From: a virus
Lineage: Duplodnaviria > Heunggongvirae > Uroviricota > Caudoviricetes
IMG/VR virus record: IMGVR_UViG_3300029888_000103
Reading direction: 5' to 3' (one strand)
DNA length: 35,877 nt
Below the pieces are notes generated by a model. That model was not told the origin of the DNA. It worked only from the letters and a program-made list of their open reading frames with translations, and made no database searches. Position numbers and translations under genes: made by a program. Shown here in pieces: positions 935 to 35,877 of this stretch; position 1 is the stretch's first letter; each line of letters starts with the position of its first letter.

Positions 935-2620
935 GTGAATATAAACGTCGCCGAATTGTTAAATGGGAATTACATTCTGTTATTATTTGTGGTCCTCGCG
1001 CTTGGGCTATGTCTCGGGAAATTACGACTTGGTTCGATCCAACTGGGTAATTCCATTGGCGTTTTAGTCGTATCGCTGTTATTAGGCCAACAACATTTCA
1101 GCATTAACACCGACGCGCTTAATCTTGGCTTTATGCTGTTTATTTTCTGCGTCGGGGTCGAAGCCGGACCGAACTTTTTTTCCATTTTTTTTCGCGATGG
1201 GAAAAATTACCTAATGTTAGCACTGGTGATGGTTGGCAGTGCGCTGGTGATCGCCTTAGGGTTAGGTAAGCTGTTTGGCTGGGATATTGGCCTGACGGCC
1301 GGTATGTTAGCTGGCTCTATGACGTCGACACCGGTTCTGGTCGGTGCTGGCGATACACTGCGTCATTCCGGCATGGAAAGCAGGCAGCTCTCACTGGCAC
1401 TGGATAATCTGAGCCTCGGGTATGCCTTAACCTATTTAATCGGTCTGGTGAGTTTGATTGTTGGTGCGCGTTACTTGCCGAAATTGCAGCATCAGGACTT
1501 ACAGACCAGCGCCCAGCAAATCGCCCGCGAACGTGGCCTGGACACTGATGCCAACCGTAAGGTTTATTTACCGGTGATCCGCGCCTACCGCGTCGGCCCG
1601 GAGCTGGTGGCCTGGACCGACGGCAAAAATCTGCGTGAACTGGGTATTTATCGACAAACTGGCTGCTACATTGAACGTATTCGACGTAACGGGATTCTGG
1701 CGAATCCAGACGGTGATGCTGTGCTACAAATGGGCGATGAAATAGCGTTGGTAGGCTATCCCGACGCCCACGCACGACTCGATCCCAGCTTCCGTAACGG
1801 CAAAGAAGTTTTCGATCGTGACCTTCTCGACATGCGTATCGTCACTGAAGAAGTGGTCGTTAAAAACCATAACGCCGTGGGCAAACGTCTCGCACAACTG
1901 AAGTTGACCGATCACGGTTGCTTCCTTAACCGCGTCATTCGTAGCCAGATTGAGATGCCGATAGATGACAACGTCGTGCTTAACAAAGGTGACGTTTTAC
2001 AAGTCAGCGGCGATGCCCGTCGCGTAAAAACCATCGCCGATCGCATCGGCTTTATCTCGATTCACAGCCAGGTCACTGACTTGCTGGCATTCTGCGCCTT
2101 CTTTGTTATTGGGCTGATGATCGGGATGATCACCTTCCAGTTCAGCACATTCAGTTTCGGCATGGGGAACGCTGCCGGGTTGTTATTCGCCGGAATTATG
2201 CTGGGATTTATGCGCGCTAACCACCCGACCTTCGGTTACATTCCGCAGGGTGCATTAAGCATGGTGAAAGAGTTCGGCTTAATGGTGTTTATGGCAGGCG
2301 TTGGTCTGAGCGCCGGTAGCGGTATTAATAACGGCCTGGGCGCGATTGGCGGTCAGATGTTGATTGCCGGATTGATTGTCAGTCTTGTGCCAGTGGTTAT
2401 CTGTTTCTTGTTCGGTGCTTATGTATTGCGAATGAACCGCGCACTGTTGTTCGGCGCAATGATGGGCGCACGCACCTGCGCGCCGGCAATGGAGATCATC
2501 AGTGATACAGCTCGCAGTAACATCCCGGCGCTGGGCTATGCGGGCACCTATGCAATCGCCAACGTCCTGCTGACGCTGGCAGGGACAATCATCGTCATGG
2601 TATGGCCAGGATTAGGATAA
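935..2620 (+). CDS. ybjL: putative transporter YbjL (AAE/YidE-YbjL family)
   Basis: 561-aa ORF with hydrophobic N- and C-terminal membrane domains flanking a soluble central region; size and neighbourhood match E. coli YbjL. Confidence 0.88.
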
Positions 2621-4747: not shown

Positions 4748-7700
4748 GCGTCGTATCCCCCCTGATCGCTGTAGTTACTCCTGGCTTTTGCCTTCAGCCT
4801 GCGTTCACGTTCATCAAGCTGGCGTGCCACCTCCCGCGCAATATCCTGCGCACTTTGTCCTGGCTGCGTCTGAATGATGATCTGCATCGGTGCCTCAATC
4901 CGTTGAACGGGCGGCACAGTGGCTGCGCGACTCACAATTGCTTCTCCACCTTTCGCGGGAAGTGCCAAAGGGTGCAACGGTGGAAGCTCTGCTGGCGCGG
5001 CAGCAACGCCCATCATTCCGGCAACAACGGCAGCCAGTGCAGCTGTATTTCTCCGGCTGGTCACATTTGCCGGGCCGTTAACAATTTCCGGCCCGTTTTC
5101 ACCGACGATGCCAAACTGCCCGCGCGGGATATACCCGCCGCTGTCATACATCCCCGCAAAGCCATATCCCCATGATGGAAAACCACCCGATGGCATCATC
5201 ACTTTACCGTCTGCATTCACCGTCGCAGGTTGCTGACGCGTCACGCTTTCCGGCAGTTTTGCCTTTGCGGCCTCTTTACTGACAATGCCGAGCTTCTCCA
5301 GCAACCAGGAAACGCCGGATTTCAGGGAGTCCAGCGGATGCATGACCATATTCAGCCCTTCCGCCAGTGCCTCCCCGAATCGCCGCCCCATTGCCGCTGC
5401 ACTCTGCAGTTCGGCAGAGGTCGACTTAACGGGCGTCAGCAGATCAGTAAACCAGCCCCACAGCGCCTGTACTTTGTCGCCAATCCACTGGAACACGGGC
5501 TTAAGCGGTTCGAATGCTGCACTGACGGGACCTGCCGCCGCTTTGAATCCTTCCACCACGCCACCAAGAAATGCGGTGATGGGTTGCCAGTATTTCCAGA
5601 CAACCAGCGCCACGCCCGCCAGTGCAGTAACCACAAGACCTATCGGACTGAGCAGAGCACCTAACAGACCAGATACGGCATACAAGGCAACGCGCAGCAT
5701 CGCCAGTGGACCAGATGCCAGTACTCGCAGCACCGTGCCTGCGGCGACCAGTCCACCGCGCAGTACCGCCAGAGGATTCATAAACATCACAGCAACAGCA
5801 CGTAAACCGGATAATCCAGACCGCAAAAGTGCAACCGGCGCACCTGCTACAGTTTTCAGGACATTTCCCGTCAGTGATGCCGTGCGGCGCAAAGATGACA
5901 ACGGTGCAGTAAGTAAACCCGCAGCGTTGCCCGATGAAGCAAGCCCGCGTCGCAGCAGTACCAGTGGTGCGCCAGCCAGCCAGGACAACGCGCTGCTGGT
6001 TCGAGTTACTGCTGCCGTAACGGAAGGTAACGTTTTGATACCCAGCACAGAGAATCCCAGACGGATCACTGCCAGCGGCCCCAGCACTGCAGCCAGCGCC
6101 ACCGCTAAGGTGCCGAGGCCGACGGTCACCGCAGCCACAACAGCCGATGCTTTCATCAGTGTGCCTGTCAGTTCCGGGTTAGCTTCCACCCAGCGACGCA
6201 ACACCCCCGTGACGCTTTTCACCGTGTACAGAATATCCATCAGCGGCTGGCGCAGCGTTTCGCCCAGGCTGCTGAAGGTGTTCTGCGCTCCGGTTTTGAC
6301 CAGCAACCACTGCGCAGAAAGTGAATCCTTGTTAATGTCGGATTCTTTCTGCATGGAGCCGAGCGCATCATTGCCCGCTGTCAGTTTTAACTGACGCTGC
6401 AGTTCCGGCAGGTTGTTTGCCAGTTTCGCCGCGTCATCGCCAAACTCTTTACCAAACAACATAGTCATGGCAGACAGGCGCTTGTCCTGCGGCAGCGCGT
6501 TCACCTTCTCCAGCACGCGCTGGATGGTTCCCATCGCATCCTTCGTCATCTGCTTTTCAATCACTTCAGGATTGAGTTTCAGCAGATTCATCCCTTCAAA
6601 GAAACTCTTGCTTTGCATGGTGGCAATGGACAATTCACGCACCATCGCGTTTGCTGCACTGGCTGCAACCTCCGGCGCAGCACCCAGAGTCAGGAAGGTG
6701 GAACCCAGCGCCGCCGCTTTACGATAATCCAGACGGTCAGCCACACCGCCCAGACGTTGCATAACATCGATGATGTCTGCCCCTTTCGACATGGCGTTAT
6801 CATCCAGATAGTTCAGCGCATCACCGAGCTGTTCAATATTGCGGGTAGGTATTTTGTAGAGCTGGGCGATTTTTCCCAGACTTTCTGACAGTTCATCCGC
6901 TGGCAGCTCAAAGGCTGTTGCCGCCTTCGCCGCCGTACTGGCGAAGGCCAGCAGGTCACGTTTCTGGTCTTCCCAGCTGTCGTCAGGGTTTGCGACATTC
7001 ATACGCGCACCACCTTCAACCAGTGCAGCGAAGTCCACCGCACCGTTTTCCATCGGCAACTGTTCGCTGGCAGCCTTGATGGCATCCTGCATTTCATAAA
7101 AACGTGCAGTGCGGTTGCCATTATCGTCACGCAGACCATTGACCTGCTTTGCCACACCTTTCATGGCATCTTCCATGCTGGTATAGCTTTTTACTGCTGC
7201 CATCACTGGCGCACCCATTGCCAGCCCTGCAGCCGTAGTAGTGGCTCCGGCTCCTGCGATGCGATCGCGCACCTCCAGCGAACGGGCATAACTGGCACGC
7301 GCTGCATTCATCCTGCGCTGAGCTTCCCCCAGTCGCTTCAGCCGCGCCTCCTGTTTCGACAATTCCTGGTTATAACGTGATGTTTCACGGGCTAAACGGG
7401 CAGTAGCTCCCGCATCATCTTTCGCAGAAATTCCCGTCCGGTACAGTTCTGCACGCACAAGCGCCGTTTGCTTCTGCAAATATTTTTGTTGTTCTTCCAG
7501 GCGTTGGACTGCCAGCGTTTGCCGACCTAAAGCCACAAGGTGCCGTTGTGATGGTTGTTCCATCGCTTCCAGCTCAGAACTAAGCAAATTTGCCTTCTGT
7601 CTGGCATAGTTCAGCCTGTCGCCTAACTTTTTGTTATCGGCCTGCAGCTTGCGAAATTTTTCCAGGCTGTTACCCGCCTGATTGAGTTGCTTTAATGCGT

Positions 7701-22048: not shown

Positions 22049-22066
22049 TGTACCGACAACCACACA
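22049..22066. promoter_or_regulatory. late-promoter activator site (TGT-N12-ACA) in the O/P divergent region
   Basis: TGTaccgacaaccacACA; a second, imperfect copy (TGTgggcagtgaaacAAT, 22021-22038) is positioned for the opposite promoter. Confidence 0.55.
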
Positions 22067-22112
22067 AACCGCAGGCGGGGAAAGCCTTCATTCAAGGCTG
22101 TAGGTTTGTGCC

Positions 22113-23879
22113 ATGAACACCACACTGACACCCGCAGATCTCGATCCCCGTCGGCAGGCCATGCTGCTCTACTTTCAGGGATACCGCGTAGCCCGCATTG
22201 CTGAAATGCTGGGCGAGAAAGTTGCAACCGTTCACAGCTGGAAAAAACGCGACAAGTGGGGTGACTATGGGCCGCTGGATCAGATGCAGCTCACCACCAC
22301 CGCACGCTACTGCCAGCTCATTATGAAGGAGCACAAAGAAGGGAAAGATTTCAAAGAGATTGACCTGCTGGCGCGCCAGTCGGAACGCCACGCGCGGATC
22401 GGCAAGTTTAACAATGGCGGCAACGAAGCCGACTTAAACCCTAACGTCGCCAACCGCAACAAAGGCCCACGCCGTCAGCCGGAAAAGAACGTTTTCACCG
22501 ATGAACAGATTGAGAAGCTGGAAGAAATCTTCCATTCCTCCATGTTCAACTACCAGCGCCACTGGTGGGAAGCTGGAAAAACCAACCGCATCCGCAACCT
22601 GCTGAAGTCACGCCAGATCGGCGCGACCTTTTACTTTGCCCGTGAAGCCCTGATTGACGCCCTGCTTACCGGACGTAACCAGATTTTCCTTTCCGCCAGT
22701 AAGGCACAGGCTCACGTCTTTAAGCAGTACATCATCGACTTCGCTAAAGAAGTGGAGGTGGAGCTGAAAGGCGATCCGATGGTGCTTCCTAACGGGGCCA
22801 CGCTTTACTTCCTCGGCACCAATGCCCGCACGGCCCAGAGTTATCACGGCAACCTGTATCTGGATGAATATTTCTGGATACCGAAATTCCAGGAGCTGCG
22901 CAAAGTGGCTTCCGGTATGGCTATTCACAAAAAATGGCGACAAACCTATTTTTCCACGCCATCCAGCCTGACACACAGTGCTTATCCGTTCTGGTCCGGT
23001 GCGCTGTTCAACCGTGGGCGCAACAAAGCCGATAAGGTGGACATCGACCTGTCCCACAGCAATCTGGCCCCCGGCCTGCTGTGCGCAGACGGGCAATACC
23101 GCCAGATAGTCACCGTGGAAGATGCGGTGCGCGGCGGCTGTAACCTGTTCGACCTTGACCAGTTGCGCATGGAATACAGCCCGGACGAATACCAGAACCT
23201 GCTGATGTGTGAGTTCGTGGACGATCTCGCGTCCGTGTTCCCGCTCAGCGAGCTGCAGGCGTGTATGGTGGACAGCTGGGAAGTCTGGACCGACTTTCAT
23301 GCACTGGCCCTGCGCCCGTTTGGCTGGCGCGAAGTGTGGATCGGTTATGACCCGGCAAAAGGTACGCAGAACGGCGACAGCGCCGGATGCGTGGTGGTGG
23401 CACCGCCAGCCGTGCCGGGCGGTAAGTTCCGCATTCTTGAGCGTCATCAGTGGCGCGGAATGGACTTCCGCGCCCAGGCTGACGCCATCAAAAAACTGAC
23501 CGAACAGTATAACGTGACCTATATCGGCATCGACTCGACCGGCGTCGGTCACGGGGTTTACGAGAACGTGAAAGCGTTTTTTCCTGCCGTCAGGGAGTTT
23601 GTCTACAACCCCAACGTTAAAAACGCCCTGGTACTCAAGGCCTACGACATTATCAGCCACCGCCGTCTGGAGTTTGACGCCGGGCACACCGACATTGCGC
23701 AGTCATTTATGGCAATCCGTCGCGCCACCACCGCCAGCGGCAACCGCCCGACCTATGAAGCCAGTCGCAGCGAAGAAGCCAGCCACGCCGATCTGGCCTG
23801 GGCAACGATGCACGCATTGTTTAACGAACCGCTGCAGGGCGAATCCGCCAATACCAGCAATATTGTGGAGATTTTTTGA
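22113..23879 (+). CDS. P: terminase large (ATPase) subunit gpP
   Basis: 588 aa; divergent from O; position and length fit P2 gpP. Confidence 0.9.
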   Translation: MNTTLTPADLDPRRQAMLLYFQGYRVARIAEMLGEKVATVHSWKKRDKWGDYGPLDQMQLTTTARYCQLIMKEHKEGKDFKEIDLLARQSERHARIGKFNNGGNEADLNPNVANRNKGPRRQPEKNVFTDEQIEKLEEIFHSSMFNYQRHWWEAGKTNRIRNLLKSRQIGATFYFAREALIDALLTGRNQIFLSASKAQAHVFKQYIIDFAKEVEVELKGDPMVLPNGATLYFLGTNARTAQSYHGNLYLDEYFWIPKFQELRKVASGMAIHKKWRQTYFSTPSSLTHSAYPFWSGALFNRGRNKADKVDIDLSHSNLAPGLLCADGQYRQIVTVEDAVRGGCNLFDLDQLRMEYSPDEYQNLLMCEFVDDLASVFPLSELQACMVDSWEVWTDFHALALRPFGWREVWIGYDPAKGTQNGDSAGCVVVAPPAVPGGKFRILERHQWRGMDFRAQADAIKKLTEQYNVTYIGIDSTGVGHGVYENVKAFFPAVREFVYNPNVKNALVLKAYDIISHRRLEFDAGHTDIAQSFMAIRRATTASGNRPTYEASRSEEASHADLAWATMHALFNEPLQGESANTSNIVEIF

Positions 23880-24904
23880 TGGGAAAGAGTAAGAAGAACC
23901 GCGCTGCGTCACAGAACCAGACCCAGCATAAAAGCCAGACTTCAGCCGAAGCATTCAGCTTTGGCGATCCCATTCCTGTACTGGACCGCCGCGAACTGCT
24001 GGACTATGTGGAATGCGTACAGACGGATCGCTGGTATGAGCCCCCCGTAAGTTTTGACGGACTGGCGCGAACATTCCGCGCTGCCGTACACCACAGCTCA
24101 CCGATCGCAGTGAAATGCAACATTCTGACCAGCACCTACATCCCTCACCCGCTGCTCAGCCAGCAGGCTTTTTCGCGTTTTGTGCAGGACTATCTGGTTT
24201 TTGGTAACGCCTACCTGGAGAAACGCACGAACCGCTTCGGTGAAGTTATCGCCCTTGAGCCTACACTGGCAAAATACACCCGACGCGGGTTAGACCTGGA
24301 TACCTACTGGTTTGTGCAATACGGTATGACAACCCAGCCGTATCAGTTCACGAAAGGCAGCATTTTTCATCTGATGGAACCGGACATTAACCAGGAGATC
24401 TACGGCCTGCCCGGTTATCTTTCTGCCATTCCGTCAGCTCTGCTCAACGAGTCCGCCACGCTGTTCCGCCGCAAGTATTACATTAACGGCAGTCATGCAG
24501 GCTTCATCATGTACATGACCGATGCTGCGCAGAACCAGGAGGACGTGAACAACCTTCGCAATGCGATGAAAAGTGCCAAAGGACCAGGTAACTTCCGCAA
24601 TCTGTTCATGTACTCGCCTAACGGCAAAAAGGACGGGCTTCAGATCATCCCGTTGTCAGAAGTCGCGGCGAAGGATGAGTTTCTGAATATCAAAAATGTC
24701 AGCCGCGATGACATGATGGCTGCGCACCGTGTACCGCCACAAATGATGGGAATCATGCCGAGTAATGTTGGGGGATTTGGTGATGTTGAAAAAGCCAGCC
24801 GCGTCTTTGTCCGCAACGAACTGATGCCGTTACAGAAGCGACTGCAGGAGCTTAACGACTGGCTGGGCGAAGAAATAATTCGCTTCGAACCTTATATGTA
24901 TTAG
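23876..24904 (+). CDS. Q: portal protein gpQ
   Basis: 342 aa; start overlaps the P stop (ATGA); last structural gene before cos. Confidence 0.9.
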   Translation: MMGKSKKNRAASQNQTQHKSQTSAEAFSFGDPIPVLDRRELLDYVECVQTDRWYEPPVSFDGLARTFRAAVHHSSPIAVKCNILTSTYIPHPLLSQQAFSRFVQDYLVFGNAYLEKRTNRFGEVIALEPTLAKYTRRGLDLDTYWFVQYGMTTQPYQFTKGSIFHLMEPDINQEIYGLPGYLSAIPSALLNESATLFRRKYYINGSHAGFIMYMTDAAQNQEDVNNLRNAMKSAKGPGNFRNLFMYSPNGKKDGLQIIPLSEVAAKDEFLNIKNVSRDDMMAAHRVPPQMMGIMPSNVGGFGDVEKASRVFVRNELMPLQKRLQELNDWLGEEIIRFEPYMY

Positions 24905-24921
24905 ATATAGATTAGGCTCAG

Positions 24922-24955
24922 AAAGCGCCTGCTACTGCAGGCGCTTTGTTTACTC
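24922..24955 (+). terminator. intrinsic terminator after Q
   Basis: 11-bp perfect stem AAAGCGCCTGC-tact-GCAGGCGCTTT followed by a T-rich stretch; overlaps the stop of the convergent 97-aa ORF. Confidence 0.65.
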
Positions 24956-25243
24956 TTTAACAAGTGTGCCCCATACCGAGTCTTCAACCTCTTCAACAAC
25001 AATATTGATGTTGCAAATAACATGGTCTTCACTTACTCGAGTATATCTGAATAACCTTGATTTCACTTTCCCACCAAACGACTCACGGTCTTTATTGTTG
25101 GTAATGTCGACATAATCCCCAACATTCGGAAGCATCAGGAGTGGATTGTCTTCCGAAGAACATCTTACAATCTCTCCATCATCAAGAGGTCGCGTATCCC
25201 CTTTACGTAAGTATTGAAAGTCATAGTTGTATATGGTTTTCAT
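24950..25243 (-). CDS. hypothetical 97-aa protein (cargo between cos and Q)
   Basis: ATG with an AGGA Shine-Dalgarno sequence; AT-rich ORF with no recognisable motif; convergent with Q. Confidence 0.5.
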   Translation of the reverse strand: MKTIYNYDFQYLRKGDTRPLDDGEIVRCSSEDNPLLMLPNVGDYVDITNNKDRESFGGKVKSRLFRYTRVSEDHVICNINIVVEEVEDSVWGTLVKE

Positions 25244-25419
25244 TGTCTATCCTTTTGAAATTAACATCGCTGACGTATGTTGTTTCACAGTTCCATTTCC
25301 ACATTAAGTCAATGAAATCAACATCATTTAATGTGTGCCAATATAGTGCAACACGATCCCGAAAACTTCAAATCAATCTCTCCAATACGCGGGATTATTA
25401 CTTTTTCGCCCCGTTACGC

Positions 25420-25445
25420 GCGCTCGTATCCCCGCCACGCCTGCC
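25420..25445 (-). other. probable cohesive-end (cos) site
   Basis: Minus strand reads GGCGTGGCGGGGATACGAG; its first 13 nt match my recollection of the 186/P2 19-nt cohesive end (GGCGTGGCGGGGAAAGCAT / GGCGAGGCGGGGAAAGCAC); lies in the 370-bp non-coding gap on the Q side of the accessory locus, the expected place. Confidence 0.5.
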
Positions 25446-25613
25446 CGCTTTATGTAGTGGTTTTCATGCGCCTGCATGACATAAGCAAAGGCCCGCCATT
25501 CCTAGCGGGCCTCAGCTAAAACGATCCTCAAACGATCATGCGGATTCATGCGGCATAGTCATGCACTTGTGTGGTTACGAAGGAATATAGTTGCGAAAAT
25601 CGATTAAAATGCC

Positions 25614-26486
25614 TTAAGCTCTCTTAATCAACCCCTTATGCGTTGCTTTGGTAAGATAAGCTAATTCTTTAGGCCCCTTATCTCTAAAGCCCACCCATTC
25701 TGGTTGGAATTTTATAAAACTTGGAATTGCGGTTGCCAAGGCTGTAACCATACCGGGAATAATACCGCCTGAATCACCAGCAATAGCAGCATGGTACAAC
25801 GGTTTTAAAAATTCCATAACCTGCCCACCATCTACTTCTGGATTAACTTTGACTCCCATTCTGATAGGATTTCTCCATTTCCCTTCGATAGCTTTATCAA
25901 GATTAACTACAGCCTCTTGTAATAAAGAAAAATTTTTAGCCCTCGTTAGATTAGGGTCTCTAGAATAAAGGACTTCAGTATACAGTTTTTCTAAGTACTC
26001 ATGTAACGCATTAAGATCATCCTGACAATCATCTTTAAAACGTAATATATCTTCTATATGAGCATCTTTATCAGGAATTCTCAGAACATTAAACAACTCC
26101 AATCTCAACTGAAGGGCCGTTTTCTGTTCTTTATCATATATTAAATTCTCCCCTGTTTGATGAAAGTGCCAATAAGTAGCAGGCTCGTTCTTCCTGAATT
26201 CATCCAATGTCTGCAACTGAAATTCCGTATATAAAAATGGAAAGTCTTGGATATTCAGCATACCATCATGTTTCATAATAGGTCTACGTAATACCCCATT
26301 ATCTAATAATTCTTTTTCTTTAGGCACAATCGAGTGAATATTTTCACTATCTAGAATAACCACATCATCCCAGTAAAAGCAGAAATAATTAATATCCTGC
26401 TCAGTTAAACCTGCCCCAAGATAGACCGTACTATTATTTCTATGAAAACTCATTTCATTAGGATTAGCTACAATGCCACGTTTCAT
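25614..26486 (-). CDS. uncharacterised 290-aa protein in the old/tin-equivalent accessory slot
   Basis: ATG at 26486 with a strong AAGGAG Shine-Dalgarno sequence (the ORF-track start at 26510 is a GTG); AT-rich; hydrophobic C-terminal segment (DSGGIIPGMVTALATAIPSFI); no motif I can assign. Confidence 0.6.
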   Translation of the reverse strand: MKRGIVANPNEMSFHRNNSTVYLGAGLTEQDINYFCFYWDDVVILDSENIHSIVPKEKELLDNGVLRRPIMKHDGMLNIQDFPFLYTEFQLQTLDEFRKNEPATYWHFHQTGENLIYDKEQKTALQLRLELFNVLRIPDKDAHIEDILRFKDDCQDDLNALHEYLEKLYTEVLYSRDPNLTRAKNFSLLQEAVVNLDKAIEGKWRNPIRMGVKVNPEVDGGQVMEFLKPLYHAAIAGDSGGIIPGMVTALATAIPSFIKFQPEWVGFRDKGPKELAYLTKATHKGLIKRA

Positions 26487-26697
26487 TCTTGCTCCTTGAT
26501 AAGCATACACATTTTAAGAATGACATATATTCTAATAATTTCAATACATTATGAGTTATAACTAAAAGTGCAGCATAGGTCTCGCCCTGATAGATAATCA
26601 AGTGATTACTGTCTTTTTACTTATGGTTAACGCCTCTCAAGGCTCGCGGTTCAACCTTGCTGACGCCAGAAGCAGGTTCAGACGCCAGCAACGTTTC

Positions 26698-26931
26698 TTA
26701 ATGCAACCAGCTGTCGTCTTCCCACACCTTCTGCATAATTTTCATCACTTGTTTTCTTTCTTCGTCCAGTTGCAATCCGGTAAGTTCCACACCGTTAGAG
26801 CTACCTTTGCGGATACGAATTACCGTTTTGGGATACAGGGGGCGCAGATTGCGGTAAAGCTCGGATTCAAGGGCGTCCAGTGTAGACTGGCTAATCTTCT
26901 GCTCTTTATCGATCATTATTTCAATGCGCAT
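26698..26931 (-). CDS. DinI-family protein (Tum C-terminal-like)
   Basis: 77 aa from MRIEIMIDKEQKISQSTLDALESELYRNLRPLYPKTVIRIRKGSSNGVELTG...WEDDSWLH, which parallels E. coli DinI (MRIEVTIAK...); GAGGTG Shine-Dalgarno sequence before the ATG at 26931. Confidence 0.75.
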   Translation of the reverse strand: MRIEIMIDKEQKISQSTLDALESELYRNLRPLYPKTVIRIRKGSSNGVELTGLQLDEERKQVMKIMQKVWEDDSWLH

Positions 26932-26941
26932 AAAAGTCACC

Positions 26942-27130
26942 TCAGCTGATGACATCCATTGAGCGGTTGTATTCGTGGGTTCTGATTTTTGCCATGAGTT
27001 CATCTGTCAGTTCAGAAACCCACTGCAGAGCCAGCCCCTTCTCTTCATCACTACACTCACTAGCCGCTACAAGCTTAAGAAAAAAATCAATGCGCTGGAG
27101 CTTCAAAGACTCCAAAAAATAGTCCTGCAT
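26942..27130 (-). CDS. small ORF (62 aa), possible N-terminal part of a Tum-like antirepressor
   Basis: ATG at 27130 preceded by AGGAGGAAAG; a LexA box lies 40-60 bp upstream; its 3' end overlaps the DinI-like frame. Confidence 0.5.
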   Translation of the reverse strand: MQDYFLESLKLQRIDFFLKLVAASECSDEEKGLALQWVSELTDELMAKIRTHEYNRSMDVIS

Positions 27131-27282: not shown

Positions 27283-29697
27283 TTAATACAGGTTTCGCCA
27301 CTTATCATCTTCCTGCAAACGCTGGTTCCGATAGAAGATACGCAGGCCTGCTCCTGACGGAATACTGCCGCCGCGAAGGAGTAAATCGACCTCTTTCTCG
27401 CTGCCATCAAATCCCCTGGACTTCAGTTCATACACGAGCTGCAGTCGCTGATGGTCTGTAATTCGCTGTTTGTAGTCTTTACGCCGTTTCGGTTTCACCA
27501 GGCGTAACCTTGCTGCCAGTTCCCGGCGCTCTTTTTTGCTCATACTGTGCAGGTAATCGTGCAACTCCTTGTCATCCATGCGGGTGATATCCGTTCTGGT
27601 ATCTCCATCAGCTGATTTGTCTTTCCCTTGTTGGTACAAATTTTCAGCAAGGGGACAGTTATTGCCACGAGTCCAAGGGGCGCAAGCGCCCTGGTCGGCT
27701 GCCGCCTCCTGAACGTCAACGGCCTTACGAACCATTTTCCACTTCACTGCATGAGTGCAGATCTTGCCCTCTGCAATGGGTGACCAGATGCCATAAATAC
27801 GAATACCGTGATCGCCATAGGCGGTTGGCTCTTCGTTGATTTCATAAGCGGTTCTGATGAGGTGATATTTGCGGGGAACCAGTACGCCGCCCTGCTTCAT
27901 GATGTAGGTGGCAAAACAACCAGCATCAGCAGCAGCCAGAATGGCATCAAGACGCGGGTTATCCAGTACCGGCGCACCTGCTTTTTTGTCACCCTGTTGC
28001 CTTGCCGCCTGACCAGCCAGCAAGCGAAGTTCACGGTAAGCCTGACGTCCCGGAATACCAAAGAAGCGGAATTGCTGAACACGATGCAGAGACGCCCAGG
28101 CATTAACGTATTCAGCGTTATCACGCAGGGATTTACCCGTTTCCTTGCTGATCTCGCCAGCCAGACCACGCCCGTCAATGTTCTTACTGATGTATTTCGC
28201 GATGTAGCTTGTCGGCGTTCCTTTGCGCGGGTTTATCAGCTCAGATTTAAAGCGTGGACCAGTGTTATTACCCAGTTCCTCGCGGTCTTCACGGATGGCA
28301 AACTTACGCAACAATGCAGTAATGGCGCGGCGGTCTTTTTTGCGCATGAAACACAACAGGTGCCAGTGAACTGTACCGTCATGATGCGGCTCAGCCACCC
28401 GCACGCCATACCAGCGCAACCCGGCTTTGTGCATCGCCTTACGAAATGCAGCAAACATGCCGACCAGATAATCGCTGCTTTGTCTTACCGTCGCATTTGT
28501 CCAGGTTGGGTTTGGTCTGCCGTTATTGAGCGTGGAATGGAAACGTGACGGACAGGTAATGGTGTAGAAAACGGCGCAGTCACCGCGCATTTCCGCGATA
28601 AGCTCCAGACCTTTAACACAGGCCATCATCTCATTGCGGCGGTGCGCCGGGTTGCTGCTGCTGGCGTTTACCACGTCTTCCATATCCAGCGTGTCGCCCT
28701 CTTCGTTCACCAGTTCATGAGAACGGAAAAACTCCAGTGACTTGCGGCGCTGCTCACGTTTATGCATCACGGCTTCATAGCTGACATAGGGAGATGCTTT
28801 TTTGCTGACCAGGCAGACAGCACGCAACTGCTCTTCCCGCCATTCGCAACGCATTTTCCATAATTTCCGGTACCACCAGTCGGCGCACAACATACGCGCC
28901 AGCGAACCCGGAATGAGTTCATAGGGCACGGGTTTACGGCGGTTTCTTTTCCGACGGAGTTGCTCAAACGCAGGCGGGATGACATCCAGACGCAGGGTTT
29001 CCGCTGCCACCTTTTCCCATGTCTTGCGGATTTCTTCTGGCTTAACGTCATCGGTGGCATACAAATCACCACAAGCTGCATCAAGGCACATGCTCATATG
29101 CGCAGCGACAAGGGTAGACAGGCGTTTCACCTGATCCTGACTCATTTCAGGCAGAATCAGCAGGCCGTCCAGCCCTACATGGCTTGCCATAAAACGAAAA
29201 GATGCAGATAGCTGGCTGTCGCGTACATGCTCCAGTCGTTCCAGACATGGCTTAATCGTCTCACGTAAATAGCGGGAATAAGCCTTTGGCCTGCCCAGGC
29301 TGCTGAAGTATTCAATACGTTGCATCAGCGGCTTGCTGATATGGGAGGGCTGGGCGCTGACGTCTGCCAGAATGACCATGTCCGGGTTAAAACGCTGCTG
29401 CTCATGCGCCAACTTTGCCCGGCTAATGAGCTTATCCTGCTCTATTTCGCGTTGGACAGGATCACGGGATTCATTAAAGAAATAACGCTCCCAGACCTGA
29501 TCACTCAGTGCCTCGCGGCGCAGTTGTTCCTGCTCGTTATCGGCAGCGTACAGAGTGATCAGGTTTGAAAGCGCAGAAACCGGCGCAACTTCCGCCGGGT
29601 CCAGATAAGGGTTAATGGCCTTTTTCGGGCTGTTCCATGAGAACGATGCGGCAGCCTCGTTAAAGCCGCAGCAGTTGCTCATATCGGCATGGCTCAT
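27283..29697 (-). CDS. A: replication initiation protein gpA (rolling-circle initiator family)
   Basis: 804-aa ORF in the gpA position of the early operon; start overlaps the stop of the upstream methylase gene. Confidence 0.88.
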
Positions 29698-31588: not shown

Positions 31589-32098
31589 TCACAGCAAACC
31601 GAATGAAGCACCGAGGCCAGTAACGGTATCAACTGCACTCGCCATCGCAGGATTAGCCTGTAAACGGGCCTGCAATGAAACAGCGGCCAGCGCCATCAGC
31701 CGTGTTACAGAGTTAATGCTGCTGATAGCATCACGACGACCTGCACTGGTTTTTACATCGCCGGATACCGCACCTGCAGCAACACGCCCGATCTCTGCGG
31801 TTGCACTCATGACATAATGCGGCAGTTTCTCTTTTGCCACCTCATTAATCGGTACACATGGCAGGCAGTGAATCTGTGCCAGAAAGCCATCTACCAGCGT
31901 TGAATCTTCAGTCAGATCGGTAAGCAACCAGATTTCTGGTGCGGTTAATAAATGAGGTTGAGCTGGGTTCAGCTTGTTCCGCAGAATCTGTACATTCATG
32001 CCTGCACGTTCTGCCAGTTGCACCAGGTTGTGGCGCAGTGCGAATGCACGACAGGCTTCGTCAAAATGTGGATGTTTGGAAACTTGGTAATCAAACAT
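31589..32098 (-). CDS. cII: CII-like transcriptional activator (186 type)
   Basis: 169 aa from [45 protein letters not shown]..., matching my recollection of phage 186 CII including the HTH; follows apl. Confidence 0.8.
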
Positions 32099-32130
32099 AG
32101 TCGACACCCCTGATGTATCCCAAAATGGAA

Positions 32131-32352
32131 CTAGTTGAATACAACATTGCAATCAGTAAGTGCATCAACGGTAAGAGCAGCAAGGTTGATCATTACCTTT
32201 TCTCTTTTCTTGTCTTTCCGAAGGCGATGGCGAGGGATGCGACCATCAGCCAGCATATCGTTGATGGTGTCGATAGAAAGACCAGTAAGTTCGCTATAAC
32301 GCTCAATTGTGACATGTGGCGTATTCAGAGTTATTGAAATGTTAGGGGTCAT
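32131..32352 (-). CDS. apl: Apl/Cox-type excisionase and lytic-promoter repressor (HTH)
   Basis: 73 aa from [44 protein letters not shown]; first gene of the rightward early operon, divergent from cI; GGAG Shine-Dalgarno sequence. Confidence 0.65.
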
Positions 32353-32400: not shown

Positions 32401-32472
32401 AAGTACCCAAATGGGGACAAAATTGATACTAGGATCGCAAAAGAGATATGTCAACATCAAAGTACCCAAATG
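32401..32472. promoter_or_regulatory. direct repeats in the immunity switch region (candidate operator elements)
   Basis: AAGTACCCAAATG occurs twice (32401-32413 and 32460-32472), 59 bp apart, flanking the candidate promoter. Confidence 0.4.
32426..32454 (-). promoter_or_regulatory. candidate early lytic promoter (pR-like)
   Basis: Minus strand reads TTGACA-17 nt-TAGTAT; the -35 overlaps the cI start codon, so a bound repressor or polymerase here would couple the two transcription units. Confidence 0.5.
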
Positions 32473-33044
32473 AGATCAAAATAAATCCCAATAAAGGTGG
32501 TAAGGCTGCGATTGAGCGATTAGTCGAAGCTTATGGCTTTACGACACGACAGGCTTTAGCTGATCACTTGGAAGTATCAAAAAGCACTCTGGCGAACAGG
32601 TATTTGCGGGATACGTTTCCTGCAGACTGGATAATCCAATGTGCTCTTGAAACAGGAACCTCACTGAAATGGTTAACCACCGGGCAAGGCCTTAAGCAAA
32701 GCTCGCTGACAGCAGCTACAGAAGAGCTTGCCAAGTTTCGCCTTACCGCAGGCAAAATGATTGAAGATGGTTCATATGTCTTCGATTCATCATTTCTTCC
32801 TGCAAATCTTTCATCACCAATTGTTATTCAGGATGGGCTCGTCACATACATTTGTGATCAAAAATTTTCTGAAGTACTTGATGGGCACTGGTTAATCAAC
32901 ATCGACGGAACCTATTCCATTCGAAAAATCACAAAGCTTCCAAAAGGTATGATTAAAATTACAAGTACAGAGAATAGCTTTGAATGTGCATTTTCTGATA
33001 TTGAAGTAGTTGCTTGTATAAGAAGTACAATAGTTTCAAATTAA
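32448..33044 (+). CDS. cI: CI immunity repressor (186 type)
   Basis: 198 aa; N-terminal HTH region (…AIERLVEAYGFTTRQALADHLEVSKSTLANRY…ALETGTSLKWLTTGQG) and a C-terminal domain, like 186 CI in length and organisation. Confidence 0.85.
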   Translation: MSTSKYPNEIKINPNKGGKAAIERLVEAYGFTTRQALADHLEVSKSTLANRYLRDTFPADWIIQCALETGTSLKWLTTGQGLKQSSLTAATEELAKFRLTAGKMIEDGSYVFDSSFLPANLSSPIVIQDGLVTYICDQKFSEVLDGHWLINIDGTYSIRKITKLPKGMIKITSTENSFECAFSDIEVVACIRSTIVSN

Positions 33045-33064: not shown

Positions 33065-34741
33065 ATGAATTCATTTTCCATCGTTATATTCTTATTAGCA
33101 TTTCTCGCCCCCATTCTAGCTGTAATATTATTTAAGCAAAGCAAAAAACATAAAGCGGCTATAAATACCTTGACAGCTAACAACATAGCCCTTTCCAACC
33201 AACTGAAAGAAAATCAAGAAGAATTAGCACAGACTGTACGAGAACTATCAGAGCTTGAAGGACGAGCTGCGCCATTATGGCAATACGTAGAATTGCACAG
33301 CGCAGTGATGGAAGCAGAGAATAAGATAAAAAATGCAGACTCAATAGCCAGGCAAAAAATAGAAGAAGCCCAAATAAAGGCTGCTAAGACAGTAAACGAA
33401 GCAAATTATCAAGCTCAGATAAAAATAAGCAACGCTAATAGCGAAGCTATAGCAATTACTAAAGACGCTCGCGATGCACGCCTGAAAGCTAAAGAACGTC
33501 TTGATAATGCCAATAGTAAAGCAAATGAGCTGATCTCAAATGCTAATGACAATGCAGTGAAAATTATTTCCGATGCAGAAGAAAGAGCAAAAGAGATTGC
33601 TGGTTCAGCATATGAAGCTAAAGAGTTTGCAGAAAAATATGAAGCAGTTGCCAAATCAATGAAAAATAAAATTGAAGGTTATGGTGATGAATGGATCATC
33701 CCTAACCGTAGCGTTCTCGATGAATTGGCAGAAAATTATGAGTTTACAGATGCAGGTAAGGAATTACAAAAAGCCAGGGAGTTAACAAAATCATTAATAA
33801 AAACTAATAAAGCTGCTTCGTGTGATTATGTTGAACAAAACAGGCGTAATACTGCTATCAACTTTGTTTTAGATGCCTTCAATGGAAGAGTTGACAGTAT
33901 TTTATCAAAAGTCAAACACAACAATTTTGGAAAACTTTCCCAAGAGATAAAAGATGCGTTTCAACTTGTAAATTACAATGGTTCTGCCTTTAGGTCCGCA
34001 AAAATAAGTGACATCTATCTTCAAGCTCGACTCAACGAGCTAAAATGGGGAGTTGCAGTTAATGAAATTATGCTCGAAGAAAAAGAAGAGCAAAGAAGGA
34101 TTAAAGAACAACTTCGTGAAGAGGAAAGAGCTCGTAGGGAGTATGAAAAAGCGATAAAAGAAGCTGAAAAAGAAGAGAAAGCTATTCAGCAAGCTATAAA
34201 TAAAGCAACAAAAGAGCTTATGCTTGCAAATGAAGAACAACGCTTAGCTTTAGAGCAAAAAATAGCTGAACTACAGTTAAAATATGAAGAAGCTGAAGCT
34301 AAAAACCAACGAGCTATTTCTATGGCTCAACAAACTAGATCAGGCCACGTTTATATAATTAGTAATATTGGCTCATTTGGCGAAGATGTATATAAAATTG
34401 GAATGACACGCCGCCTTGAACCACTTGATCGTGTTCGTGAACTCGGTGATGCTAGTGTTCCTTTTTCGTTCGATGTTCATGCGATGATTTATAGTGATGA
34501 TGCACCATCATTAGAAAATCATCTGCATAAAGTCTTCAACGAAAAACAGGTCAATAAAATTAACTCACGAAAAGAGTTTTTCAACGTAAATATTAAAGAA
34601 ATTAAGTCTGTTATTGAAGATATGAACATCAACGCACAATGGACAATGTTTGCGGAAGCGAAAGAATATAGAGAGTCACTGGCGATTGAGCAAGAGCGCA
34701 AAGCAGCAACTTCCGCCAACGATGAACTGCATGTTGCTTAG
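33065..34741 (+). CDS. membrane-anchored coiled-coil protein with DUF4041-like and T5orf172/GIY-YIG-like C-terminal module (cargo)
   Basis: 558 aa; N-terminal TM helix (FSIVIFLLAFLAPILAVILF), about 250 aa of A/K/E/N/Q-rich heptad-like sequence, and a C-terminal region GHVYIISN...VYKIGMTRRLEPLDRVRELG...FDVHAMIYSDDAPSLENHLHKVF that I recognise as T5orf172-like; AAGGA Shine-Dalgarno sequence; 20 bp after the cI stop. Confidence 0.8.
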   Translation: MNSFSIVIFLLAFLAPILAVILFKQSKKHKAAINTLTANNIALSNQLKENQEELAQTVRELSELEGRAAPLWQYVELHSAVMEAENKIKNADSIARQKIEEAQIKAAKTVNEANYQAQIKISNANSEAIAITKDARDARLKAKERLDNANSKANELISNANDNAVKIISDAEERAKEIAGSAYEAKEFAEKYEAVAKSMKNKIEGYGDEWIIPNRSVLDELAENYEFTDAGKELQKARELTKSLIKTNKAASCDYVEQNRRNTAINFVLDAFNGRVDSILSKVKHNNFGKLSQEIKDAFQLVNYNGSAFRSAKISDIYLQARLNELKWGVAVNEIMLEEKEEQRRIKEQLREEERARREYEKAIKEAEKEEKAIQQAINKATKELMLANEEQRLALEQKIAELQLKYEEAEAKNQRAISMAQQTRSGHVYIISNIGSFGEDVYKIGMTRRLEPLDRVRELGDASVPFSFDVHAMIYSDDAPSLENHLHKVFNEKQVNKINSRKEFFNVNIKEIKSVIEDMNINAQWTMFAEAKEYRESLAIEQERKAATSANDELHVA

Positions 34742-34824: not shown

Positions 34825-35877
34825 ATGGCAGTACGAAAACTCACCACAGGAAAATGGCTTTGCGAATGTTACCCCGCCGGACGTAGTGGACGTCGTGTGC
34901 GTAAACAATTCGCCACCAAAGGCGAAGCTCTGGCTTTTGAGCGTCACACGATGGAAGAAACCGAAGCAAAGCCCTGGCTGGGTGAATCAGTGGATCGTCG
35001 AACACTGAAAGACGTGGTTGAACTATGGTTCAAACTACATGGTAAATCTCTGACAGCTGGGCAGCATGTCTATGACAAATTGCTGTTGATGGTTGACGCT
35101 CTGGGCAATCCTCTTGCAACCGATCTCACCTCTAAAATGTTTGCCCACTATCGAGATAAACGCCTGACAGGCGAGATCTACTTCAGCGAGAAATGGAAGA
35201 AAGGAGCAAGCCCGGTCACCATTAACCTGGAGCAAAGCTATCTAAGTAGTGTTTTTAGCGAACTATCCCGTCTGGGCGAATGGTCGTATCCGAACCCACT
35301 GGAGAACATGCGAAAATTCACCATCGCAGAAAAAGAGATGGCATGGCTTACCCATGAGCAGATTGTTGAATTGCTGGCTGATTGCAAACGTCAGGACCCA
35401 ATTCTGGCACTGGTAGTTAAGATATGCTTAAGCACAGGCGCACGCTGGCGTGAAGCCGTAAATCTTACTCGCTCACAGGTGACCAAATACCGAATTACCT
35501 TTGTCAGAACGAAGGGGAAGAAAAACAGAAGCATCCCTATCAGTAAAGAGCTTTACGAAGAGATCATGGCGCTTGATGGGTTCAATTTCTTCACAGACTG
35601 CTATTTTCAATTTTTATCCGTGATGGAAAAAACGTCTATCGTGCTCCCTCGCGGTCAACTCACACACGTTCTGCGCCATACGTTTGCGGCGCACTTCATG
35701 ATGTCGGGTGGAAACATTCTGGCCTTACAAAAAATTCTCGGACACCACGATATAAAAATGACTATGCGTTACGCACATCTGGCACCGGATCATCTGGAAA
35801 CGGCGCTCCGTTTCAATCCTCTGGCAACGCTGCCAAGTGGCGACAAAGTGGCGGCAGCGGTTGGCATTACCCCGTAA
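34825..35877 (+). CDS. int: tyrosine integrase (P2/186 Int family)
   Basis: 350 aa; N-terminal MAVRKLTTGKWLCECYP...KQFATKGEALAFERHT parallels P2 Int (MAIKKLDDGRYEVDIRPTG...KFDKKSEAVAFEKYT); C-terminal catalytic region with ARWREA..., HVLRHTFAAHFMMSGG and RYAHL motifs; the stop codon is the last triplet of the window. Confidence 0.92.
   Translation: MAVRKLTTGKWLCECYPAGRSGRRVRKQFATKGEALAFERHTMEETEAKPWLGESVDRRTLKDVVELWFKLHGKSLTAGQHVYDKLLLMVDALGNPLATDLTSKMFAHYRDKRLTGEIYFSEKWKKGASPVTINLEQSYLSSVFSELSRLGEWSYPNPLENMRKFTIAEKEMAWLTHEQIVELLADCKRQDPILALVVKICLSTGARWREAVNLTRSQVTKYRITFVRTKGKKNRSIPISKELYEEIMALDGFNFFTDCYFQFLSVMEKTSIVLPRGQLTHVLRHTFAAHFMMSGGNILALQKILGHHDIKMTMRYAHLAPDHLETALRFNPLATLPSGDKVAAAVGITP

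Follow-up and report, generated by a model that had tools for sequence, protein, structure and literature searches.

A conserved 97-codon gene carried as cargo in the Q-side half of the gpA-gpQ hotspot of a P2-family prophage

In the P2-family prophage of IMG/VR virus record IMGVR_UViG_3300029888_000103, a short open reading frame of 97 codons (ORF97) lies between the portal gene Q and the cohesive-end site cos. Is it a genuine gene, is its position unusual, and what might its product do for phage or lysogen? The whole stretch of DNA analysed (35,877 nucleotides; the window) consists of a host permease gene followed by a complete P2-family prophage of Fels-2-like type, reversed relative to the usual P2 orientation (Table 1). 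The late genes form the first part of the prophage, ahead of terminase gene P, and a Dam methylase gene comes after gpA. Since this is an integrated phage, cos lies in the interior of the window. Gene Q forms the left edge of the slot which holds ORF97.

Table 1. Coordinates of features in the window and of related features in other sequences
Feature	Sequence	Coordinates	Strand	Basis or remark
Host permease gene	window	935-2620
Terminase gene P	window	22113-23879	+
Portal gene Q, 342 aa	window	23876-24904	+	ORF list; RefSeq orthologue 'phage portal protein'; homologues carry PF04860 Phage_portal
Hairpin, 11-bp stem, between convergent Q and ORF97	window	24922-24947	both	terminator scan and folding
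ORF97, 97 aa, ATG start	window	24950-25243	-	ORF list; RefSeq annotates identical CDS in E. coli
Ribosome-binding site AAGGA, 6 nt upstream of ATG	window	25250-25254	-	read from sequence
Candidate weak sigma-70 promoter, TTGCAC-17 nt-AATGAT	window	25323-25351	-	8/12 consensus positions; sub-threshold, inferred
Conserved cos block, parting the two hotspot halves	window	~25403-25560		megablast against phages and E. coli genomes
cos 19-mer GGCGTGGCGGGGATACGAG, inferred cohesive end	window	25423-25441	-	comparison with annotated cos
Strong hairpin in cos block	window	25484-25517	-	-25.6 kcal/mol, z -3.4, then UUUGCUU
DUF6236 protein gene, 298 aa	window	25614-26510	-	Pfam E 1e-20; PHROG 23128
DinI gene	window	26698-27003	-
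Replication gene A (gpA)	window	27283-29697	-
CII	window	31589-32152	-
CI	window	32448-33044
558-aa protein, DUF4041 and T5orf172/MUG113 (GIY-YIG-like) domains	window	33065-34741	+	between CI and integrase
Integrase	window	34825-35877
ORF97 homologue, ~60% identical, intact	L003-L005	8001-8294		Serratia marcescens chromosomes
ORF97 homologues in or beside packaging modules	L007-L009, L042	~7001-7288
	L041	4682-4972
	L038	5887-6279
Homologous multi-transmembrane protein, 228-233 aa, between ORF97 and Q	L036	6348-7049
	L111, L113	7058-7744
630-aa P-loop NTPase-fold protein across cos	L001	6878-8770		E. coli 2014C-3011
	L251	4307-6199		E. coli LR-50

The extent of the gap depends on the location of cos. 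No other sequence in the window matches the annotated cos 19-mers of P2, 186 and PsP3 as well as GGCGTGGCGGGGATACGAG, which is identical to those of 186 and PsP3 at 15 of 19 positions, including all of the first 13. The block surrounding it is the only one conserved with Fels-2, SopEphi and the Klebsiella and Yersinia P2-like phages, and it was found in 1,267 of 5,426 complete E. coli genomes. More than 120 viral contigs contain the exact cos 24-mer, which is internal in all contigs listed. From the Q stop to the 19-mer is 519 bp, in agreement with an earlier note on this DNA, which had put the distance at about 520 bp. The same note stated that the P2 portal gene ends within a few tens of bp of the cohesive end. 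This is incorrect; in P2, 186 and PsP3 a distance of 167 to 178 bp, which includes terminator tQ, separates the 19-nt end from the portal stop, and Q, tQ and cos all fall within 186 to 197 bp with no ORF between them. As the gap in these phages is already 167 to 178 bp, the extra DNA in the window amounts to about 350 bp, not 500 bp. The proposal that an accessory gene has been inserted between the Q terminator and cos is supported relative to P2, 186 and PsP3. Fels-2 carries a gene of 565 aa (STM2723.1) in the slot.

The description of ORF97 as AT-rich, preceded by a ribosome-binding site and convergent with Q was accurate. GC content is 0.38 to 0.42 in the ORF97 region compared with 0.51 to 0.62 in genes P and Q. 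The hairpin between the convergent genes, the counterpart of P2 tQ, folds at -21.5 and -21.2 kcal/mol on the two strands (z -4.4 and -4.2). The earlier view of a bidirectional terminator shared by both genes therefore stands as regards folding (about -21 kcal/mol on either strand) and less well as regards the U-tract, which is good for Q, on the plus strand, but weak for ORF97, on the minus strand. The hairpin downstream of ORF97 is kept in relatives L027, L028, L029, L032 and L012.

ORF97 is a real, conserved gene, far beyond a chance reading frame, as can be seen from its low dN/dS, its many homologues of conserved length, its invariant residues and a confident AlphaFold model. In six pairwise comparisons (Nei-Gojobori) dN/dS was 0.08 to 0.2. 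A word-indexed search gave 90 homologues of near-constant length, from Enterobacteriaceae, Serratia, Comamonas, Agrobacterium, Sphingomonas, Kushneria, Alishewanella and Desulfuromonas, while an exhaustive search with a profile, covering 1.84 billion representatives, gave 215 clusters at 50% identity across Proteobacteria, nearly all of them stand-alone proteins of 90 to 100 aa. Longer members of the family are apparent mis-called N-terminal extensions or, in one case, a TetR chimera, and domain fusions were discounted on these grounds. Residues P39, V41-G42-D43, G58, V60, F65, C77 and E84-E85 are invariant, and the NIVVEE strand is near-invariant in the alignment. The AlphaFold2 model built from 82 sequences (pLDDT 92.9, pTM 0.82) has strands at residues 2-12, 44-47, 56-71 and 74-85, a long ordered loop and a C-terminal helix.

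The family is rare. It is present in 12 of 5,426 complete E. coli genomes, and a single-protein scan of species-representative genomes gave one ORF97 locus. A tblastn search of 50,697 phage records gave no homologue, so the family is absent from that sequenced-phage collection. Rarity in E. coli, the lack of functional annotation in the databases searched and the association of homologues with IS110 in two chromosomes might be explained if ORF97 were a lysogenic-conversion gene with a role in host physiology that has nothing to do with phages, or else a selfish passenger of no benefit. Such a role is unlikely given strong purifying selection across wide divergence and given that almost every context mapped is either a phage or a defence-type island.

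Occupancy of the slot among relatives was surveyed in two samples. The portal-selected sample comprised 80 IMG/VR contigs, those whose portals are closest to that of the window (≥ 93% identity), and 75 of these have the cos core downstream of Q; the cos-selected sample comprised 55 contigs chosen solely by the exact cos 24-mer. Two of the 75 portal-selected contigs show empty, P2-like spacing (~180 bp), and in the remaining 73 the slot spans 0.54 to 3.5 kb and contains one to three ORFs on the minus strand. In all, 58 protein clusters share the Q-cos slot in these 75 contigs. In the cos-selected sample the slot is empty in seven contigs and occupied in 48, the median spacing being 1,708 bp. 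Slot representatives matched retron reverse transcriptases in PADLOC and, in Pfam, AIPR, PIN_12, TIR_2, ThsB_TIR, SEFIR, GmrSD_N, SieB, DprA, Schlafen AlbA_2, HIRAN, KAP NTPase, AAA_13 and AAA_21. Members of the ORF97 family were found in five of the 75 portal-selected and three of the 55 cos-selected contigs. At 537 bp, the ORF97 slot is the shortest of those occupied in the portal-selected sample; the cos-selected median is ~1.7 kb.

The order Q, ORF97, cos, gpA, together with content that differs among syntenic, closely related phages, places ORF97 in the gpA-gpQ defence hotspot published by Rousset et al. 2022 (PMC9122126) and re-analysed by Moura de Sousa et al. 2026 (PMC13586616). The ORF97 slot is the Q-side half of this hotspot. 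Its position is ordinary, since nearly all close relatives fill the slot, many of them with anti-phage defence genes. The earlier note had regarded the extreme genome end as an unusual place for cargo, a view contradicted by the occupied slots of related contigs (73 of 75 and 48 of 55) and by the published hotspot. Its further idea, that position at the genome end matters through the order of injection, found no support, as cos is internal both in the prophage and in the circularised genome and ORF97 has putative expression signals of its own. That ORF97 is a real gene and forms part of the cargo of a known hotspot is hardly in doubt.

Comparable occupants of the Q-cos slot are known from named phages. 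Besides STM2723.1 of Fels-2, they include orf14/orf15 of SopEphi, a TIR protein plus another gene in phage 500465-1, and a RloB and ATPase pair in Klebsiella phage ST13-OXA48phi12.1. All have the strand and position of ORF97, are convergent with Q and are bounded by the conserved cos block, but none is related to ORF97 in sequence. With hotspot cargo such as P2 tin/old, ORF97 shares the cos-adjacent site, the direction of transcription, AT-richness and swapping between near-identical backbones. It differs in that tin/old lie on the A side of cos, whereas ORF97 lies on the Q side and matches no known defence family.

ORF97 also resembles the morons of temperate phages, a concept reportedly due to Hendrix and Juhala. 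Like a moron, ORF97 stands as one gene between elements which are adjacent in P2, 186 and PsP3, is of deviant base composition, is opposed to the late genes and has a terminator hairpin. Morons have their own promoter, whereas for ORF97 there is a candidate only (8/12 consensus positions).

ORF97 behaves as an exchangeable module. Alleles 68 to 69% identical occur on backbones in which Q is 96% and P 99.8% identical to the window, and the presence of divergent alleles on near-identical backbones indicates that ORF97 is swapped by recombination at the slot. E. coli LR-50 has a divergent allele in the equivalent slot. In P2-like phages the family always adjoins cos, and five contigs have another gene between ORF97 and Q. 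In three of them (L036, L111 and L113) it encodes a multi-transmembrane protein of 228 to 233 aa, which may make ORF97 part of a two-gene variant there. In L035 and L037 the intervening genes code for unrelated products, of 298 and 385 aa. ORF97 is also followed by unrelated membrane proteins in L017, a Desulfuromonas chromosome, and in L047, a Mu-like contig, and, as the multi-transmembrane followers in the three contexts are unrelated to each other by BLASTP, they were rejected as a conserved partner gene. No conserved partner for ORF97 was found, as both downstream genes and cargo across cos vary by context.

On the other side of cos, the window carries DUF6236 as cargo; E. coli 2014C-3011 and LR-50 have a P-loop NTPase there, and a Citrobacter phage has HipA_C, HIRAN and a Rv2179c-like gene. 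Several contigs have no cargo ORF there besides the DinI gene. The ORF97 alleles of 2014C-3011 (NZ_CP027591, 987356-987649) and LR-50 have 100% and 69% nucleotide identity to that of the window, and both loci carry the 630-aa NTPase-fold protein across cos. This sharing is possibly coincidental, as other ORF97 loci carry different cargo at that place.

The DUF6236 protein of the window fills the A-side half of the hotspot, directly across cos, and its gene has a GC content of 0.34. It has no PADLOC match, and PHROG 23128 is a family without assigned function. In Table S5 of Rousset et al. 2022 (PMC9122126), DUF6236 is listed as cluster 125 (23 loci). The gene for the 558-aa DUF4041 protein, between CI and integrase, forms a third cargo slot of the prophage, which matches the minor integrase-side hotspots described in PMC13586616.

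When would ORF97 be expressed? A strict scan found no minus-strand sigma-70 promoter above threshold upstream of ORF97. The sub-threshold candidate between cos and the gene has both hexamers kept in L027, the nearest divergent relative, despite diverged flanks. No TGT-N12-ACA late-activator dyad is present upstream of ORF97. Such dyads occur at 22049-22066, just upstream of P, and at 22107-22124, overlapping the P start; the former fits a P2-type late promoter activator site. No Rfam family was matched in 24700-25800.

A strong hairpin lies on the A side of the cos 19-mer, upstream of ORF97 in the direction of minus-strand transcription. Judged from its sequence and position, it probably blocks read-through from the DUF6236 gene toward ORF97. 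It may terminate transcripts of the hotspot ahead of cos, or the hairpin may belong to the region recognised by terminase. The same hairpin is found in the aligned relatives which reach that far (L027 and L036).

ORF97 is probably a gene expressed in the prophage state and not a late gene, to judge by its orientation against the late operon, the lack of a TGT-N12-ACA dyad and the predicted shielding by the hairpin from upstream transcription. The missing dyad, the isolating hairpin and the candidate promoter together favour an autonomous unit outside the late regulon.

Searches for molecular function, which the earlier note had proposed, were productive in terms of homologues and not in terms of a function-bearing family or a solved structure. 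ORF97 has no match in Pfam or NCBIfam, and neither it nor a homologous member matched PADLOC-DB 2.0.0 at E values up to 1. It belongs to PHROG 12676, a family without assigned function. A BFVD search gave uncharacterised proteins only, there was no significant match among solved structures, a Pfam scan of 39 family members gave scattered sub-threshold matches only, and a literature search found no mention of the family.

The sole database match of the profile against the PDB was to the designed double-psi beta-barrel (DPBB) proteins DPBB_sym (7di0 and related entries). Residues 14-49 of ORF97 (RPxDDGxxV...LPNVGDYVxI) align with the designed repeat, with a whole-sequence E value of 3.8e-4 and per-repeat values of at least 0.31. 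The invariant VGDYV motif resembles the GD box of cradle-loop barrels (DPBB, AbrB-like). However, these barrels are built from a beta-beta-alpha-beta unit, whereas the ORF97 model has no helix between its strands and no natural family was matched. A DPBB or GD-box fold was therefore rejected, since the confident model (pLDDT 92.9) misses the required helix.

Three further assignments were discarded. PilZ, the UniRef name of one homologue, was matched by none of 39 members at E values up to 1, and its motifs RxxxR and D/NxSxxG are missing from both the ORF97 sequence and the conserved columns. ORF97 shows neither the Nudix hydrolase box (GX5EX7REUXEEXGU) nor the alpha/beta/alpha sandwich on which it sits. 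A terminase-associated HNH endonuclease does not fit a family which has no conserved His (only C77 is kept) and no Pfam match, and which is dispensable in close relatives.

Acidic, soluble and beta-rich, the product (11.3 kDa, pI 4.85, no transmembrane segment) has a single domain, in which no catalytic motif could be recognised. A small, acidic, soluble, single-domain, non-catalytic profile is typical of many anti-defence proteins. ORF97 might accordingly be suspected of being a counter-defence or pro-phage factor, a small acidic inhibitor or sponge of use to the phage in lytic growth or once induced, for example in neutralising a host immune protein or signal, and the contexts of its homologues bear on this possibility as well as on others.

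Outside P2-like phages, homologues recur in or beside packaging modules, and the phages concerned are unrelated. In Comamonas prophages a ~50% identical homologue lies between TerL and portal, on one strand with them and inside the late operon. A P22-like contig has it between TerS and TerL on the opposite strand, another contig has it divergent from TerS, and in L043 it lies close to a P2-type TerL. The recurrence of the family beside packaging genes, as a count without statistics, is striking. Together with the constant position on the cos side of the interval between Q and cos in P2-like phages, it could point to a packaging or head-assembly accessory acting on terminase, portal or cos DNA, either for the phage or against satellites and competitors. 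Such an activity is very improbable for ORF97, which is absent from P2, 186, PsP3 and ~93 to 95% of the close relatives with near-identical portal and terminase, and therefore cannot be necessary for packaging. It also has no late-promoter dyad, the enrichment beside packaging genes is without statistical support, and about half of the non-P2 contexts are away from packaging genes (tail fibres, lysis, integrase, GmrSD, IS110). Further contigs have a homologue near a Mu-type protease, beside a capsid gene, near tail-fibre genes, or near lysis and integrase genes. In Sphingomonas it comes after an SNase-like gene.

The late-operon placement in Comamonas points to expression during lytic growth, and in the Mu-like contig L047 the homologue is co-directional with neighbouring head-module genes. 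Both count against a defence role in the prophage and would suit counter-defence. A counter-defence factor is nonetheless unlikely, since ORF97 is opposed to the late genes in P2-like, P22-like and other contigs and homologues are found in non-phage islands beside IS110 and in a non-inducible Serratia remnant. In addition, P2-like phages seldom carry known anti-defence genes (28 of 1,511 elements; PMC13586616).

The copy kept in several Serratia marcescens genomes is intact and lies at the edge of a degraded 186-like remnant (CI, CII, Fil, DUF5347) with no structural genes. This remnant carries a GmrSD plus HEPN or an AAA_15 gene pair next to CI. In two viral contigs a homologue adjoins GmrSD, HEPN and a C5 methylase, and in Alishewanella and Desulfuromonas it lies next to IS110, once in an island with AbiTii. 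From the intact remnant copy, the homologues beside GmrSD and HEPN and the island with AbiTii, it seems that the host benefits from ORF97.

The most likely role of ORF97 is that of an exclusion or defence protein which works alone and is made by the prophage, as argued by analogy from the co-occupants of the slot, the orientation of the gene and its retention in prophage remnants. The probability of this reading is put at roughly 40%. It receives support from the corresponding hotspot of P4 satellites, where six of eight loci with only genes of unknown function gave phage protection (PMC13586616). Against it, machine-learning predictions cited in the same paper flag only 15 to 32% of unknown P2 proteins as defensive, and a 97-aa protein with neither partner nor enzymatic motif is an unusual defence system.

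On the defence reading, ORF97 would be an independently acquired accessory (moron-type) gene in the Q-side half of the cos-flanking hotspot. In the lysogen it would be transcribed leftward from its own putative weak promoter between cos and ORF97. Translation would begin from the AGGA site, and transcription would presumably stop at the computed hairpin shared with Q. The protein alone, as a binder rather than an enzyme, may then exclude or abort other phages and so shield the lysogen, as guilt by association with its neighbours suggests.

A more specific version is rather doubtful: PHROG 12676 might be an unrecognised ~11 kDa stand-alone protein, with a fold unlike solved structures, through which the prophage protects against other phages or satellites, possibly by blocking packaging or head assembly. 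Interference of this kind with packaging would explain the presence of ORF97 beside terminase, portal and cos in P2-like, P22-like and unclassified Comamonas phages.

The gpA-gpQ hotspot in fact comprises two independent slots parted by cos, which is relevant for hotspot mining, and the Q-side slot is filled in ~87 to 97% of Fels-2-type phages. ORF97 itself is an uncharacterised gene in an already described hotspot, a reasonable candidate for screening but no surprise. If active, it would extend the defence or counter-defence repertoire of P2-like prophages by a single-gene system of very small size whose fold is unassigned.
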